Part shown: positions 1,445 to 8,868 of the stretch, one piece after another | How the letters are laid out: every line of letters begins with the position of its first letter | How positions within the stretch are numbered: the first letter of the stretch is position 1 | DNA from: a virus | Lineage: Duplodnaviria > Heunggongvirae > Uroviricota > Caudoviricetes | Length of the DNA stretch: 44,882 nucleotides | IMG/VR virus record: IMGVR_UViG_2872678658_000005 | Span: 1 to 44,882 of that record | Reading direction: 5' to 3' (one strand) | Translations under genes and position numbers: made by a program | The notes under the pieces: model-generated | Seen by the model: only the letters and a program-made list of their open reading frames with translations | What the model was told of the DNA's origin: nothing | Databases searched by the model: none

Positions 1445-1461
1445 TTTAAATCAATAAGTTA
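1399..1461 (+). repeat. attL core (3' 46 nt of thrW plus about 17 nt downstream)
   Basis: Exact 63-bp direct repeat of the segment at about 43625-43687 (ATTCGTAATGCGAAGGTCGTAGGTTCGACTCCTATTATCGGCACCATTTAAATCAATAAGTTA). Confidence 0.8.
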
Positions 1462-2622
1462 CACATCATTAGTACCTTCCTTATTTTTTGACTGGGACAA
1501 ATTTGGGACCGATGGGTTCAGGATCGAGTCTATTTGCCGTGCGTGTTCGGTAAGGTGATTAGGTGCAAGGTGAGCATATCGACGAACCATTTCGATAGAC
1601 TCCCAGCCTCCCATTTCCTGTAACACTGACAACGGGACTCCGGCTTGAACCAGCCAACTTGCCCAGGTGTGTCTCAAGTCGTGAAATCTGAAATCATCAA
1701 TACCAGCCCGTCTCAGCGCCGCTTTCCAGGCTGTGTTTGCGTCATACCGCATCTTCCTTACTGTTGGCGCTTTCGTTCCGTCTGGTTTGGTACAGCTTTC
1801 CTTGTACACAAATACCCAACGGTGATGATTCCCGATTTGTTTTTTCAAAACGCGACATGCAGTATCATTCAGCGCAACGCCAATTGCGCGGTTTGATTTA
1901 CTCTCTTCCGGGTTTATCCATGCCACCCGGCGCTGCATGTCTATTTGTTGCCATTCAAGGTTGATGATGTTCGAGCGTCTTAAGCCTGTTGCCAGTGCAA
2001 ATTCAACAACAGACTTTAATGGCTCCGGACATTCATCAATCAGCCTTTGTGCTTCATGGGGCTCCAGCCAGCGGATCCGTTTATTCTTTGGTTGAGGCAC
2101 TTTAATAATTGGTGCCTTATCCAGCATTTTCCATTCACGCTCTGCGGCTCTTAGTAGGGCCTTTATAAATGAAAGATGCGTAGCCTTCGTTGCAACGGAC
2201 GCTGGTTTTGGCGTGTATTCTGGAACAGGTTTCCCTTTTTTTCTGCATGCTTCTGCCCTGAGTCTCCAGTTTTCCTCATGACGCCGGTTCGTCATTTTCT
2301 GCATTGCTGAATAAATTTTTGATTCAGTAATGTCTCTTAGTTGCATTCCTGCGAAATGTTGAAGCCAGAATCCGATCCGGCTTTTGTCATCGTCCAGTGA
2401 TTTTTTATGTGCTTTCTCTTCAAGCCACCTGACACACGCTTCCTCGAACGTTATATCAGGTATTTCACCAAGTTTGCTGACCCGCCATGCTTCAGCCTTT
2501 AGCTTGTCATGGAGTTCTGTCGCCTGCCTTTTGTCCTTTGTTCCAAGAGACTGTTTAAATCTTTTACCGTTCGGCAATGTGAAACTGGCGTACCATATTT
2601 CACCTCTGCGGAAGAGTGACAT
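1459..2622 (-). CDS. int: tyrosine integrase (P22-type, 387 aa)
   Basis: ORF translation [24 protein letters not shown]... with C-terminal HDLRHTWAS...RYAHLAP catalytic region; adjacent to attL at the tRNA-Thr site that P22-like integrases use. Confidence 0.9.
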
Positions 2623-4170: not shown

Positions 4171-4995
4171 TCAGGCGGTGAAAGTACCAATAAAGGTTTC
4201 TACTTTGCTGTCCTTGAATTTCTCAACAAGCAGATCACGAAATTCGTTAGCCATTTCTTCCTGCACCGCCTCCAGCTGAATAATGCGCAGAACCAGTACC
4301 GGACGATCGCCAGTGATAATGCTGAGGCGTAATTTAAACGGACGTTCTTTCAGACCTTCAAACGGAATGCATTTAAATTCAAATGCCACTGGCATAATGT
4401 CTTTGGTCTTCGCTTCGACAGACTCCATCAGGGAGCGTTTGCCGCTGAAGTCATTATCTTCAAAATCAGCGGTCTGGTTTGCTTCAATCGTGATTTTACG
4501 GACCGCCGCAGCCGCTTTTGTTGCCTGAATGGTGTCACCATTAGCATCAAAGCCCACAAGGTAGTCGGCCCAGTCTTCAATCCATTCTGCCAGTGATTTC
4601 TGGGAGTTACGCTCGCCATTAACAGACAACAGAGCAGAGAACGGTGCTGTCTTTTTCAGTTTGAGAGTGGCGGTGTTATCTGCGTGACCTGGTTCATCAA
4701 TAGTACCCAGGTTAAGCACACTGACGGCACGCATATTATCAGCATCGATAAAGCAGCGGGTGCCTTCATCTGCAAGATCTTTAGAATAACGGGTAAAGTC
4801 ATCGATGCTGGCAGTGGAAAGCGCACCACGGAAACGGAAGCGATTTAAATTAAATTTTTCCAGATCATGAATGCGGAAATTCTCAGGCAATGCCACAGCA
4901 TCGGCACCAATCTTACTGATAATTTCATTAACACCCTGAGCAGAAATAAGGGCATGGATTTGATTAATTGCGGTTGCGTCTAAGTTCTGAGACAT
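4171..4995 (-). CDS. DUF2303 protein (YfdQ-like, 274 aa)
   Basis: Translation [28 protein letters not shown]...; GAGGA Shine-Dalgarno upstream of the ATG. Confidence 0.75.
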
Positions 4996-5060
4996 AATAA
5001 GTCCTCACTATATAAAGATATTCAGTGATGAGATAAATAATCAGTTAATTAAGAACGATA

Positions 5061-5423
5061 TTAATGACCTGCTGCGCGGAGTTTTCCGTCAGGTTCACCG
5101 GCAAGAGTCAGTAATTGTCCCTGGTCTTCCTGCAGAATAGTCAGGCGACCACCGCGATTGACATACATCGGCGTTTCGGTGGTGTCTTCTTCGGAAATTT
5201 TCCCGCGGTTAGTCGGGCGAACATATGAGAGTTTGTGTTTGATTTTCACACGGTTCTCATCAAACGGTTCGATTTCCAGGTTGAGCGAGACCTTACCTTT
5301 GGTTTTCGTGTTCATCACACCGGAAGCGACTTCACTGAGAACTGCGCCGATTTTGGTTTCAAATACGCCGCCGTCCAGCTCCCCGATAAATGCCTGCACA
5401 TCAGTACTGCGTTCGCTAGCCAT
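5061..5423 (-). CDS. hypothetical early protein (YfdP-like, about 120 aa)
   Basis: Start placed at MASERSTDVQAFIGELDGG (GGGGAG upstream); the longer 197-aa reading has a low-complexity, non-protein-like N-terminus. Confidence 0.55.
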   Translation of the reverse strand: MASERSTDVQAFIGELDGGVFETKIGAVLSEVASGVMNTKTKGKVSLNLEIEPFDENRVKIKHKLSYVRPTNRGKISEEDTTETPMYVNRGGRLTILQEDQGQLLTLAGEPDGKLRAAGH

Positions 5424-6031
5424 TTTGCTGCTCCCCATCATATCGACCCTGCAAGGTCGGTTGGTTTCTCCACAAAACAGAGAAGAACACCTGCGGTGAC
5501 TGCCGCCCGGATGGATTGGGTTATGAGCCCGTCGTCCGGTGATGCTCTTCTCTGTTTTGTAAAAAGAGCGGTACCAGCCGGAAGCAAGGGTACAAACTGG
5601 TACCGCCAAAGCAGTGGCTGTTGTGGTGGGGTTGTCACTCAGGCGTATGGTCAACCTGACAATCCGGTGTCCTCAACGGGGAAAGAGTAACCCCGCCATA
5701 CTTACCGCCGCGCCATTTCGCGGATTACCACAACGCTGAGAGCACTTAGCCAGTTACGGCACCACACTTTGTCGCGGCTCCATAAATGCCCTCATCGTTG
5801 CACCCTGGTCTCTTCCCAGGCGTCAAACCGAATCGCCACGCTGGTTAGGCGTCTTATCAGCATCATCATTGACTTGCACATTCCGGCTACCTGGTTTGTT
5901 TGCCCGAGCAAGGAGTGGATTGTCCCCTTTAACGTCCCCAGACCGCTAACGACGCATGTGCCATACGCCGTGTTACAACCAAATTTTGTTAGTACCTTGT
6001 TTGTTTGTCTGGAAAGAAAGATAAAATGAAG

Positions 6032-6070
6032 TTGCGCATTATGCAAGTGTTTTTGTTGCGAGATATGCAA
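6032..6070. promoter_or_regulatory. putative OL-like operator pair (TTGCG-N5-xGCAA)
   Basis: Two 15-bp sites, TTGCGCATTATGCAA and TTGCGAGATATGCAA, each with inverted TTGC/GCAA half-sites, downstream of cI; a third copy lies in the cI-cro intergenic region. Confidence 0.35.
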
Positions 6071-6079
6071 TTTAAAGGG

Positions 6080-6105
6080 TAATGAAAAGCCACCTTTGGG
6101 TGGCT
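6080..6105 (-). terminator. intrinsic terminator after cI
   Basis: 7-bp stem AGCCACC/GGTGGCT with TTTG loop; on the minus strand it is followed by TTTTCATT, 20 nt after the cI stop. Confidence 0.5.
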
Positions 6106-6125
6106 AATTGATGAGGAGGTAAGGG

Positions 6126-6818
6126 TTAATTGTGTCGCTTAAGGGTTTGTGACTGGCTGATTAAGACCTTTCCAAAGACCATAAACCGGTGTTCATTTTC
6201 GCTGGTAATTCCCCATTCACGGTAAATCTGGTTATCAGAAATCACCAGTAGTTTGTCAGGTATCATTTGCAGTCGTTTGACATAAATTTTATCATCAAAA
6301 CCAAAGACATAGATACCATCTCCATCAAACTGATTGATACTGACATCAACGAAGATGAGATCTCCTGGCTCAATGGTTGGACACATACTGTCCCCACGAA
6401 CGTTGATAACTTTAATGTGATTGGCTGGCCGTCCGCCAAACATCGATACAGCATTATCAGTTCTGTATTCAATGGCATGAATCACATCAATGACATCACC
6501 GCCCTGGATAAGGCCATTTCCCGCACTGGCACTGACATCCAGCATTTCAATACGGAATACATCCTTCACCTGCGCAACATCCTCACTAATACTGTTTTTA
6601 CATACAGTATTACTTTTGAAGTCTGAGGTAAAGAGATCAGCAATATCAACACCTAAGCTCCTGGCAATATTACTCAGGGCTTGTTCAGTGAATTGTTTCT
6701 GCTTACCTGTTTCCAGGCGTGAGATATTCGCCGCATCCACTCCTATTGCTTCAGCGAGATCGGCGATTTTCATGTTCTTCGCCTGGCGAAGTTGTCTGAC
6801 TCGGTTTCCTATGTTCAT
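6126..6818 (-). CDS. CI-like repressor (HTH plus S24 LexA-like peptidase domain, 230 aa)
   Basis: N-terminal XRE-type HTH (KIADLAEAIGVDAANISRLETGK); C-terminal domain with the GDSM serine motif and a downstream lysine typical of autocleaving repressors; divergent from cro. Confidence 0.85.
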   Translation of the reverse strand: MNIGNRVRQLRQAKNMKIADLAEAIGVDAANISRLETGKQKQFTEQALSNIARSLGVDIADLFTSDFKSNTVCKNSISEDVAQVKDVFRIEMLDVSASAGNGLIQGGDVIDVIHAIEYRTDNAVSMFGGRPANHIKVINVRGDSMCPTIEPGDLIFVDVSINQFDGDGIYVFGFDDKIYVKRLQMIPDKLLVISDNQIYREWGITSENEHRFMVFGKVLISQSQTLKRHN

Positions 6819-6838
6819 GCGTTTATTACATTTCTTTA

Positions 6839-6900
6839 TTGCGCGTTAAGCAAATCAACTTGCGCAAAATATTTGCGTGAAATAATATGCTCATCACGCA
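6839..6900. promoter_or_regulatory. OR / PRM-PR region
   Basis: 97-bp divergent intergenic region with operator-like TTGCGCGTTAAGCAA, palindromic TTGCGCAA, and a candidate PR (-35 TTGCGC, 17-bp spacer, -10 TAATAT) ahead of the cro GGAGG RBS. Confidence 0.4.
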
Positions 6901-6915
6901 ATATGTGGAGGTCAT

Positions 6916-7176
6916 ATGCAATCACCATTACGGAATGTGCGTAAGGCGCACGGATTTACTTTGCAGCATGTTGCTGCTGGCGTTCAGGTCAATCCAGCGA
7001 CGCTGAGTCGTATTGAAAGACTGGAACAAATTCCATCTATCGATCTTGCAGAACGTCTGGCCAATTTTTTTAAGGGTGAAATCAGCGAAATGCAGATTCT
7101 TTATCCGGCACGTTTTCAATCTAGCCAAAACCAGAATGGGTTTAAACCACAGGAACAGGAGGTAAGCCGTGGGTAA
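6916..7176 (+). CDS. Cro-like HTH regulator (86 aa)
   Basis: Translation with XRE-type HTH (HGFTLQHVAAGVQVNPATLSRIER); GGAGG RBS; divergent from the repressor. Confidence 0.75.
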   Translation: MQSPLRNVRKAHGFTLQHVAAGVQVNPATLSRIERLEQIPSIDLAERLANFFKGEISEMQILYPARFQSSQNQNGFKPQEQEVSRG

Positions 7177-7720
7177 TCATCACTGGAAAGTGGAAAAACA
7201 GCCTGAGTGGTACGTGAAAGCTGTCAGAAAAACTATCGCGGCGTTGCCGGGGGGTTACGCTGAAGCTGCTGAGTGGCTGGATGTAACAGAGAACGCTTTA
7301 TTCAACCGCCTTCGTGCAGATGGCGATCAGATTTTCCCGCTGGGATGGGCAATGATTTTACAGCGTGCTGCTGGCACTCACTACATTGCGGATGCTGTCG
7401 CACAGTCTGCTGGTGGGGTGTTTGTATCGCTTCCTGAAATTGAGGAAGTAGAGAACGCAGATATAAACCAGCGCCTGCTGGAAGTCATCGAACAGATCGG
7501 GAGTTACTCAAAGCAGATTCGTTCGGCAATCGAAGATGGGGTAGTGGAGCCACACGAGCAGACAGCAATTAATGATGAATTGTATCTGTCAATTTCGAAG
7601 CTCCAGGAGCATGCGGCACTGGTCTACAAAATTTTCTGCGCTCCAGAAAAGAGTGACGCCCGCGAGTGTGCAGCTCCGGGCGTCGTGGCGTTTTGTGTCT
7701 GTGGAGAAACTAACGCATGA
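7169..7720 (+). CDS. CII-like / YdaT-family regulatory protein (183 aa)
   Basis: GTG start 8 nt after a strong AGGAGG; occupies the cII position after cro; family assignment is from recalled similarity, not a search. Confidence 0.55.
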   Translation: MGNHHWKVEKQPEWYVKAVRKTIAALPGGYAEAAEWLDVTENALFNRLRADGDQIFPLGWAMILQRAAGTHYIADAVAQSAGGVFVSLPEIEEVENADINQRLLEVIEQIGSYSKQIRSAIEDGVVEPHEQTAINDELYLSISKLQEHAALVYKIFCAPEKSDARECAAPGVVAFCVCGETNA

Positions 7721-8322
7721 ACAGTTTAACGGCAAATAACCGTTTGTCGCAACAGCTGGTGGTCAGTGTCGCTGCACACCTGTTGTTACGGCATGAATGC
7801 AGATTACCAAATCACCTGGCTGTAAGTAACCACAGAGAACTTTACCTGACTGTGGGGGGCGAGTTGTGCAGGAACTTAACCGCTGGTTTCGTGACGGAAG
7901 AGGACTTTATGTTCATGTTATTCGTTGGGAGCCAGAAACACAGCGCGTTATCTATCTTCGCAAAGACTACCCGCATGAGTGCTTTAGTCCTTTGTGGAAA
8001 TTCAGGCGTGATTTTGTTGAGTGTGAAGGACCACCAGCACATTGATTCTGCCATTCCGGGACGTTACACTGTTCAGGCACCTTATAAAGCGGGTGCCGGG
8101 CGTGGAAACCCGGAATTCACCAAAGCGCACAACCGCGCTCTTGCGGTTTTTTTGTGTCATGAGCAGCATTACGCCCAAATTATGGTGGGGCGTGCAGGGC
8201 CAACTTCGGTTGGGCCGGGTTCTTTGGTGACCGGTATTTCCACCCCTGTACGTCTCACCACCAATAAGGTCGTGGAAAGCCTTGGTGGTGAGTTATTAAA
8301 AATCACCAAAGAGGCTGCCATC
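7717..8322 (+). other. ambiguous 600-bp segment: open in frame with the downstream Rha gene, but contains terminator-like and hairpin structures
   Basis: ATG at 7717 overlaps the stop of the CII-like gene (ATGA) and the frame stays open for about 200 codons into Rha; the translation is not recognisable and a hairpin plus T-run lies inside at about 8131-8153. Confidence 0.25.
8131..8153 (+). terminator. candidate intrinsic terminator (tR1-like)
   Basis: AACCGC-GCTCTT-GCGGTT hairpin followed by TTTTTTT. Confidence 0.4.
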
Positions 8323-8868
8323 ATGGCTACGATCCCAACCCTCACTCAACCTGAAATTGCCATCGTTGATGGTCAGGCTGTTACTTCATCCCTGGCTGTT
8401 GCCAACTTCTTCTCCAAACGTCATGACGATGTACTGAAAAAGATCCGCACGCTTGAATGTTCCGCATCATTCACTGCCCGCAATTTTTCGGTGAGTGATT
8501 ACACCGATTGCACAGGCCGCAAACTACCTTGCTATCAAATAACCCGCGACGGCTTTGCGTTTCTTGCTATGGGTTTCACGGGTAAACGTGCTGCCCAGTT
8601 CAAAGAGGCATACATCAATGCCTTTAACCAGATGGAGAAACAGCTTTCAAAGCCCGCTGTACCGAGCGACGTTGCACATAACGCCAGCGTTCTCTGTTCC
8701 TACATTTCATCAATTCATCAGGTCTGGCTGCAGCAGCTTTATCCTATGTTGGCAAAAGCCGAATCTCCGCTGGCTGTTAGCTTATATGACTATATTAATG
8801 ATGCTTCGGCGCTGGCCTGCCTCATAAATTTGTCGCTGAACCCTTCAGAGGTAAGGGGGCGCAAATGA
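8323..8868 (+). CDS. Rha-family phage regulatory protein (181 aa)
   Basis: Internal ATG giving MATIPTLTQPEIAIVDGQAVTSSLAVANFFSKRHDDVLKKIR...ITRDGFAFLAMGFTGKRAAQFKEAYINAF, the canonical N-terminal pRha domain; AAGAGG upstream. Confidence 0.75.
   Translation: MATIPTLTQPEIAIVDGQAVTSSLAVANFFSKRHDDVLKKIRTLECSASFTARNFSVSDYTDCTGRKLPCYQITRDGFAFLAMGFTGKRAAQFKEAYINAFNQMEKQLSKPAVPSDVAHNASVLCSYISSIHQVWLQQLYPMLAKAESPLAVSLYDYINDASALACLINLSLNPSEVRGRK

Follow-up and report, generated by a model that had tools for sequence, protein, structure and literature searches.

How a lambdoid phage without an N protein expresses its early-left genes is the question posed by the gap between the repressor gene and the first early-left gene in the DNA studied here, a window of 44,882 nucleotides (nt; IMG/VR record IMGVR_UViG_2872678658_000005) that is a lambdoid prophage of the mEp460/cdtI/Stx2c-phage type. 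We take the leader to be this gap, from the repressor stop to the start of a yfdP-like gene (window 5424-6125), and read it as a minus-strand transcript, so that its features lie on the minus strand unless stated otherwise. Along the leftward transcript, this leader strings together RNA modules that shuffle independently of one another, in the order leftward promoter (PL), core RNA (5973-5792), helix P7, tRNA-like module B, DicF-like terminator hairpin, three-way hairpin, and yfdP-like gene, followed by the remaining early-left operon. Its strongest element, the core (5792-5973), lies upstream of both hairpins described in the initial annotation of this DNA and was absent from that annotation. 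The core represents a new family of pseudoknotted RNAs that is widespread and sits near the promoter in phage transcription units.

The core occupies 182 nt (5792..5973, with a minimal fold at 5804-5970), as delimited by a covariance model and covariation, and its family comprises RNAs of 170-180 nt with five helices (P1, P2a, P2b, P4, and P5) and two pseudoknots (PK1 and PK2). Helix P1 (5970-5966 with 5954-5950) encloses loop L1 (5965-5955), the invariant 11-mer UAUGGCACAUG, which pairs through GCACAU (5961-5956) with AUGUGC (5881-5876) inside an invariant 19-mer, GGUAGCCGGAAUGUGCAAG (5891-5873), to form PK1. Behind P1 come helices P2b (5945-5942 with 5887-5884) and P2a (5941-5938 with 5894-5891), and farther along the RNA helix P4 (5852-5849 with 5841-5838) presents a loop (5846-5843) that pairs in PK2 with the strand ahead of P5 (5829-5826). 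Helix P5 itself (5820-5816 with 5808-5804) carries the loop GAAGAGA. The 11-mer and the 19-mer are long unpaired segments that are invariant across genera; the peripheral hairpins vary.

The evidence for this fold is comparative, since the single-sequence fold of the core is unremarkable (z = -0.9) and not significant. In alignment A3, which holds 70 diverse representatives out of 272 copies, standard pairs fill 94.2% of cells, as opposed to 27-41% when the partners are slid by 1-3 columns; 16 of the 36 core pairs change on both sides, and the observed covariation was reached by 0 of 500 shuffles. Helices P1, P2a, P4, and P5 contain several compensatory pairs each, and pair 128/148 of PK2 switches from C-G to A-U with no mismatch, a switch that also separates otherwise near-identical Kosakonia copies. 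PK1 and P2b are invariant bar one wobble-compatible change each, and covariation therefore neither supports nor contradicts them; PK1, together with P2a, P4, and P5, is independently predicted by RNAalifold. The abundant G-U pairs would be C-A mismatches on the opposite strand, which makes the core fold strand-specific. A covariance model of the family (R1) finds the window core at 135.6 bits (E = 5e-42) and no second copy in the window. Against Rfam 15 the core has no match at E <= 1 with permissive filters, nor at the gathering threshold, and the homologous cores of phiV10 and a Klebsiella phage have no Rfam match either. A full-text literature search for the invariant motifs returned nothing relevant, although subscription journals may hold a description.

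Several further pairings were considered and set aside. A helix P6 (101-104 with 149-152) has a C-A mismatch at one pair in 57 of 70 sequences, a GCCGGA/UUCGGU pairing from the first RNAalifold run is broken by a U-to-A variant, kissing of a UUCCUUG loop with a GGAAGAG loop lacks a compensatory pattern, and a put-like pairing of the core's 5′ flank with loop L1 is not kept across subfamilies. Two variant cores (L193, 7323-7506; L232, 780-962) carry an extra hairpin, GGCAUUUAUGCC, between P1 and P2, so the core junction tolerates insertions. In mEp390 (L125), a weak second match to R1 (2190-2315; 11.5 bits, E = 0.007) stands directly behind the full copy at 1938-2103 and may be a degenerate tandem duplicate of the core.

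The 272 copies, collected from viral contigs, GTDB genomes, and GenBank phages, occur in lambdoid prophages after PL, in phage P1 upstream of ban, and in epsilon15-like phages before tRNA-Arg, and their orientation is always that of the downstream genes. No tRNA adjoins 200 of them. A same-strand open reading frame (ORF) lies upstream of 197 copies, and 114 of these come ~120-140 nt behind an S24 repressor gene, counted from its stop; the repressors upstream of the core form two unrelated clusters, and the copies 120-140 nt behind them are PL leaders. The core lies ~45-50 nt downstream of strong sigma-70 promoters in mEp390 (TTGACA-18-TACATT), L012 (TTGACA-16-CATAAT), and L158, and the window core begins at the same distance, ~40-60 nt after the predicted PL start. 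Another 45 of the 272 precede tRNA-Arg(UCU). In the epsilon15-like and Klebsiella phages examined, core and tRNA-Arg make up a small unit oriented against the late genes, and the commonest next ORF in this setting is of the phiV10 p03 type (25 loci) or the DUF2829 type. The other 27 follow tRNA-Ile(CAU) and precede ban in P1-like phages; in phage P1 the core starts 13 nt past the CCA end of the tRNA. Both in phage P1 and at locus L158 the core is a plain 5′ leader of the next gene, running into its ribosome-binding site, and at L158 a 63-amino acid (aa) ORF sits between the core and the DicF-like terminator, replacing P7 and module B. The core is found in 1375 of 5426 complete Escherichia coli genomes, with 255 places on plasmids, i.e., P1-like replicons, and also in Stx2c-converting and cdt-converting phages. 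No feature is annotated at the core among the 12 E. coli matches listed. The invariant 19-mer is also present in two metagenome-assembled genomes labelled Oscillospiraceae and Bacillota (L262 and L274), which are probably mis-binned, because all remaining 19-mer matches are to Enterobacterales. In some core variants (L142, L148, L164 (four copies), and L212) a short GC hairpin and a canonical boxA stand 18-25 nt past the core end. The boxA occurs in four distinct variants, as UGCUCUUUAACAA in L164 and as GCUCUUUAA in the others, and the reverse-strand control gave none; the L164 string agrees at 13 of 13 positions with the rrn boxA.

The start of the leader in the window was placed from sequence features. 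The S24/helix-turn-helix repressor gene (6126-6818, minus strand) is followed by an intrinsic terminator found in a terminator scan (6084..6105; hairpin 6105-6088, AGCCACCCAAAGGTGGCT then TTTTC), and beyond it lies a predicted OL/PL region (6018..6070) with two operator-like 15-mers, TTGCATATCTCGCAA (6070-6056) and TTGCATAATGCGCAA (6046-6032). The candidate PL consists of a -35 element TTGCAT (6046-6041), a 17-nt spacer, and a -10 element TATCTT (6023-6018), with CATAAT (6043-6038) as an alternative -10, and leftward transcription is predicted to start at ~6011-6031. From the repressor terminator, the operators, and this weak PL candidate we infer a leftward untranslated leader of ~590-610 nt. 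At its far end, the ORF list gives a Shine-Dalgarno sequence, GGGGAG, with the yfdP-like gene (5061..5436); this first early-left gene (5061-5423, ATG at 5423) matches phrog_204 (E = 1e-49), and its homologue carries the YfdP annotation in phiSTEC1575-Stx2k. BLAST against phage genomes resolves the leader as a mosaic of modules with differing distributions: the first ~260 nt match phages P1, P7, and D6 together with the epsilon15-like phages phiV10, TL-2011b, and SPN1S, the next ~120 nt match PPompW prophages and also one Actinobacillus phage, and the last ~180 nt match SfV, SfII, SfIV, and ST64B.

Helix P7 (5732..5799) joins the core to the next module; it is long, CAACGAUGAGGGCAUU...AAGUGCUCUCAGCGUUG, and closes off a variable insert. 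Its fold has z = -4.0, and across 78 distinct homologues its 15 pairs are 95% paired, with compensatory double changes in 10 pairs. The sole boxA candidate in the window, the boxA-like string UGCUCUCA, was rejected; it is paired because it is located in the covarying 3′ strand of P7. The variable P7 insert often holds sequence resembling the 3′ half of a tRNA, as in L090, L171, and SPN1S (L127, ~1620-1660), with a T-arm, GGTTCAATTCC or GGTTCGATTCC, and then an acceptor-like strand. Module B (5620..5734), recognized from its fold, BLAST, and alignments, is a cloverleaf-shaped RNA of four helices, three of which show compensatory changes among 20 distinct sequences. It occupies the position of the real tRNA-Arg(UCU) in epsilon15-like phages such as phiV10, is ~89% identical to the sequence immediately upstream of dicF in prophage Qin, and matches a region labelled "dicF-like region" in the ban operon of the phage P1 record. 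By ARAGORN and Rfam, module B is not a tRNA: the only ARAGORN call in the window is the tRNA-Thr at 1369-1444, no Rfam tRNA model matches, and the cloverleaf-like fold has a 9-nt "anticodon" loop and an 11-nt "T" loop. Rfam holds no match of any other kind for it, and we found no description of the module; literature searches on the transcriptome of P1, and on tRNA-like structures in connection with DicF, returned nothing. The motif GUGC(U/G)CU(Y)(Y)C(R)G(S)(K)UGUGG, a "connector", is repeated directly ahead of a tRNA, of module B, and, in some phages, of the core (window 5737-5727; Qin, L278, ~940-960; the core 5′ flank in Klebsiella, PAT1-type, and phiV10-type phages) and may be a shared processing or junction signal.

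Behind module B stands the DicF-like terminator hairpin (5557..5607), GGCGGUACCAG...CUGGUACCGC then UCUUUUU, identified by its fold and by alignment with dicF. The initial annotation had singled out its perfect 10-bp stem, GCGGTACCAG...CTGGTACCGC, and this stem is present at 5567-5607; its fold reaches -21.2 kcal/mol (z = -3.8), a stability matched by 1 of 200 shuffles. The hairpin aligns with the dicF terminator hairpin of prophage Qin as its positional homologue, and hairpin and U-tract are kept in 15 distinct homologues. It is probably tL1, and it could be the 3′ end of a DicF-related small RNA (sRNA) without the 5′ seed of DicF. The resemblance to Qin extends along the dicB operon leader: window 5734-5557 aligns with ~130 nt upstream of dicF and with the DicF terminator hairpin; a tRNA-like module, a DicF-type hairpin with U-tract, and protein genes follow one another in the same order; and in both the operon reads away from the repressor gene. 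Alignment A4 shows UUUGGCGGUA(C/U)CAGUUU and CCGC(U/C)CUUUUUA in common with DicF, whereas the 5′ 20 nt of DicF (seed region, UUUCUGGUGACG) are deleted in the window and the loop differs. The Rfam DicF model (RF00039) has no match at E <= 1 in 4900-7000, although the same search finds Qin DicF at 76.7 bits. Unlike the window, Qin has no core element. A DicF-type hairpin with U-tract is located ~180-200 nt behind the core in 113 of 182 contexts lacking a tRNA and in 32 of 41 tRNA-Arg contexts (62-78%), with no occurrence in the reverse-complement control or in P1 contexts. DicF-type hairpins are thus recurrent first terminators of prophage early-left operons. This strand-controlled motif replaced a general, genome-wide census of terminators downstream of the core.

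The second hairpin of the initial annotation, a 16-bp stem, also exists, as the base of a three-way hairpin that ends in UUUUGU (5470..5562), recognized by fold and covariation. Its folding energy is -47.8 kcal/mol (z = -7.3), a value that 0 of 200 shuffles equal, and in 32 distinct homologues 96.4% of its cells pair. BLAST finds it in SfV, SfII, SfIV, and ST64B, directly ahead of the yfdP-like gene. The covariation check that had been proposed for the two hairpins gave a split answer, with compensatory double changes in 7 pairs of the three-way hairpin and none in the 10-bp hairpin among its 15 homologues, and the proposed Rfam search found nothing in the leader. The idea that these two hairpins act like put did not hold up: the 10-bp stem is a DicF-type terminator, more likely something for polymerase to pass, or the 3′ terminus of a DicF-like sRNA, than a put-like element, and the 16-bp stem forms the base of a conserved hairpin immediately ahead of the yfdP-like gene. 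The suggestion of an sRNA or a cis-acting antitermination element is reasonable for parts of the leader, and a put-like role is plausible for the 182-nt core alone. On the plus strand, a terminator-like hairpin, ATCGACCCTGCAAGGTCGGT then TGGTTT (5442-5461), just upstream of the yfdP-like start and at the same site in L012, could stop antisense rightward transcription from entering the leader. Two of the phages that share the three-way hairpin have leader contents of their own: in ST64B (L280, 1860-2640) the leader is a different structured one, ~770 nt long and with a tRNA-like module of its own, GUUGUGGUG...CACCACAAC, and SfV (L279, 1629-2690) has orf33 (98 aa) between two annotated terminators.

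Folds, covariation among homologues, and ORF searches agree with the earlier view of a structured non-coding leader on the leftward transcript. Its description as ORF-poor needs qualifying, in that the region has no support for a protein but is overlapped by mechanical ORFs of 92, 66, 34, and 26 aa on the minus strand and of 151, 86, and 41 aa on the plus strand. The 92-, 66-, 86-, and 151-aa ORFs were taken to protein searches; none has a Pfam match, and their PHROG matches are to families of "unknown function" only, such families being built from annotated ORFs. Read from the ORF list, no leader ORF has an Arg-rich N-terminus, and the earlier statement that no N-like ORF is present is therefore upheld; a lambda-type N/nut system finds no N ORF with an Arg-rich motif in the leader by ORF list, Pfam, or PHROG. 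The annotation of the close relative mEp460 lists a Q-like late antiterminator and no N, and our account of N as absent refers to the leader ORFs and to this annotation. The variable segments and hairpins of the core differ in length across all classes modulo 3, which, with the Pfam and PHROG results, leaves a protein-coding reading of the leader unsupported. Annotators of related phages nonetheless call hypothetical proteins over the leader, on either strand, and thus place hypothetical ORFs here on opposite strands.

What the core does can be approached by comparison with known promoter-proximal RNA signals. The put RNAs act in cis and need no protein factor; they bind RNA polymerase at its beta-prime zinc-binding domain. 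Like the HK022-type put elements (HK022 putL and putR; HK639, HK75, and phiEt88), the core is an element just after PL in an N-less lambdoid phage, with terminators and then early-left genes behind it; in the window these terminators are the DicF-like hairpin and its U-tract (5557-5607), then the three-way hairpin with its terminal UUUUGU (5470-5562). In both, unpaired nucleotides are highly conserved and peripheral helices variable, and put and the window core both have a 5′ H-type pseudoknot around a CGGCG/CGUCG helix with CAUG in the loop (PMC9378689). The core differs from put in its size and architecture (~170-180 nt, five helices, and two pseudoknots vs. ~72 nt and two stems) and in occurring outside lambdoid PL leaders as well, in the P1 ban operon and beside tRNA-Arg in epsilon15-like phages. 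The boxA systems (lambda nut with N, and the rrn leader with Nus factors) likewise place a promoter-proximal RNA signal ahead of terminators, and four relatives of the core have a hairpin and an exact boxA directly behind it; however, nut sites measure ~35 nt and the core ~170 nt, and the window, unlike lambda N/nut, has neither an N ORF nor any boxA-like string other than the one paired in P7.

We tentatively favor, at somewhat under an even chance, the reading that the core is a cis-acting antiterminator RNA, put-like in action but of a different, undescribed family, that helps polymerase pass the DicF-like terminator. On this sequence-based proposal, the core would fold once transcribed, ~40-60 nt after the start, and its invariant unpaired segments would bind the transcribing RNA polymerase or an accompanying host elongation factor. 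The modified complex would then resist the DicF-like terminator and the following hairpin, allowing early-left genes to be expressed in a phage without N protein, and for polymerases left unmodified the DicF-like terminator would be the end point, yielding a short non-coding transcript. We favor this because the core is a genuine, strand-specific RNA structure, because its position is conserved and promoter-proximal, because the DicF-like terminator recurs behind varying sequence (P7 with the tRNA-like module, tRNA-Arg, or the 63-aa ORF), because neither the leader nor the mEp460 annotation offers an N, because two strong terminators separate the core and tRNA of phiV10 from the next gene, and because phage P1 and L158 use the core as a plain 5′ leader. 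The combination of invariant unpaired segments with a variable periphery, as in put, suggests binding to a conserved host machine, and the canonical boxA behind four core variants links the core to elongation control. The core might, with slightly greater reserve on our part, represent a second class of RNA, without structural kinship to put, able to reprogram RNA polymerase or a Nus-type elongation complex for processive antitermination with no phage protein, setting the balance between a DicF-like sRNA and early-left expression.

A number of observations weigh against an antiterminator role. A kinship with put, the closest precedent, finds no support: a model of five put RNAs (R2), with HK022 putL located via a primer in PMC9378689 and the others taken from HK639, phiEt88, CobraSix, and S9-5, recognizes HK022 putL at 99 bits and putR at 42 bits (E = 4e-8) but gives no match to the window leader or to the P1, phiV10, mEp390, and SPN1S cores, even with filters off, and the reverse search with R1 finds no put site. 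When compared with the put consensus (stem I, GAACGGCGCGAC...AAACCAUGCGUCGG; stem II, GGCGGG...CGGCAAU), the window core shares ACGGCG...CAUGCGUCG with putL stem I, a likeness that largely dissolves in the family consensus, where the put-like helix closes with A-U in 41 sequences and with G-C in 29. At the position of the essential G35 of put (PMC9378689), the core has U, A, or C. Despite the eye-level similarity to putL stem I, membership of the core in the put family is ruled out by both searches and by the family consensus; a functional analogy stays plausible. There is one core copy per phage and none in the rightward operon, as opposed to putL and putR in HK022, although a second copy may not be obligatory, since HK639 has only putL annotated. 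SfV and ST64B share the downstream genes and hairpins and lack the core, which is therefore not indispensable for that operon. The PL candidate of the window matches the consensus weakly (7/12), under the threshold of the promoter scan, whereas the promoters of its relatives are strong. The general census of terminators downstream of the core was rejected as uninformative, its finder being equally positive on the reverse strand. Finally, a tRNA or tRNA-like module directly behind P7 would permit RNase P to separate the core from polymerase, and this arrangement fits a released stable RNA at least as well.

Such a released RNA is the main rival to antitermination, although we consider it rather unlikely. 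Upstream RNAs are freed by RNase P at a downstream tRNA or tRNA-like structure in MALAT1/mascRNA and among the stable RNAs of the T4 tRNA cluster, and the core shares with systems of the MALAT1/mascRNA type a structured RNA with a tRNA or tRNA-shaped module right behind it and a long helix where they meet; here, however, the processing is putative, and in phage P1 the tRNA lies upstream of the core. On this account, core and P7 would be a stable trans-acting non-coding RNA in a "stable RNA operon" (core-P7, tRNA or tRNA-like module, DicF-like sRNA), with a 3′ end made by RNase P at the module, a 5′ end made in phage P1 by tRNA-Ile processing, and a target in host or phage, such as a defence or RNA-binding protein for which it would serve as decoy. 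The end of P7 is the exact start of tRNA-Arg in phiV10 or of module B in the window, the phage P1 core begins just past the tRNA-Ile CCA end, and P7, with its 10 covarying pairs, would shield a 3′ end; the modules shuffle independently, the neighbors are RNA genes, with a DUF2829 gene in Klebsiella and phiV10-type phages, and some variants have a terminator-like hairpin directly behind the core. Yet the cores of phage P1 and L158 have no P7, tRNA, or terminator behind them and adjoin the next gene's ribosome-binding site, a trans-acting RNA needs no conserved promoter-proximal position, and no target complementarity was identified.

The other accounts rank lower. A sensor role for the core, as a riboswitch-like aptamer or as a switch that binds a factor, choosing between a stop at the DicF-like terminator (sRNA only) and early-left expression, is improbable: its size, two pseudoknots, and many invariant unpaired nucleotides recall large aptamers, and RNAalifold's alternative pairings for both strands of helix P1 hint at two conformations, but these pairings lack covariation, no expression platform adjoins the core, the terminator stands at a variable distance (~180-200 nt) behind variable sequence, and the phage P1 core has no terminator behind it. 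A passive structured leader, stabilizing the 5′ end of the transcript or denying Rho a loading site on the ~590-nt leader while polymerase is left untouched, would suit a long untranslated leader that is folded throughout and has the core always at or near the 5′ end of the untranslated stretch. Such a role, which we hold to be decidedly improbable, leaves the 11- and 19-nt invariant unpaired segments and the conserved pseudoknots unexplained, and Rho shielding would have no effect on downstream intrinsic terminators. That the leader codes for a small protein, such as the product of the 92-aa ORF (5792-6070) or of the 66-aa ORF (5438-5638) and possibly an unrecognized N analogue, is very improbable. 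Frames without stops are common across the core, and the overlapping ORFs have PHROG families; even so, the Pfam and Arg-rich searches were negative, the 92-aa ORF begins upstream of the predicted promoter, the variable-hairpin indels fall in all modulo-3 classes, base-pairing and not codon position governs substitutions, and annotators dispute the strand. We give equally little credence to the conserved structure acting as DNA, for instance as a single-strand initiation signal or a recombination site. The 255 plasmid matches in E. coli and the proximity of the P1 core to the helicase gene ban would agree with such a role, and covariation cannot distinguish RNA from single-stranded DNA, but the core is always oriented with a transcription unit just downstream of promoters, it adjoins tRNA and sRNA genes, and in lambdoid and epsilon15-like phages nothing ties it to replication or packaging.

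Around the leader, the window has a lambdoid layout. The tRNA-Thr found by ARAGORN (1369-1444) and the integrase gene (1459-2622, minus strand) lie to the left of the early-left genes, which are YfdR-like, YfdQ-like, and YfdP-like on the minus strand, and to the right of the repressor gene are a cro-like gene (6916-7176) and a CII-like gene (7169-7720), both on the plus strand. In the rightward operon (plus strand, 8077-8265), Rfam recognizes isrK (8077-8153, 67 bits) and the C4 antisense RNA (8178-8265, 83.6 bits), both inside a mechanical 383-aa ORF (7717-8868) whose Pfam "Ash" domain (aa 117-213) covers the isrK/C4 nucleotides and is followed by a Rha domain. This locus looks like a P1 immI/Gifsy-1 isrK-type module, and the N-terminal part of the ORF may be non-coding.

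The described examples of RNA-only processive antitermination are few, among them EAR in Bacillus and put in HK022-like phages. Lambdoid phages that lack N are common, and it has only been guessed that these "may use put" (PMC12315714). The core family sits where nutL or putL sits, is unannotated in the genome records shown, and has no Rfam match. Its presence in phage P1 and in Shiga-toxin- and cdt-converting prophages makes it a testable candidate for opening the early-left operon. Whatever their function, the core family and the tRNA-like module upstream of dicF merit curation.

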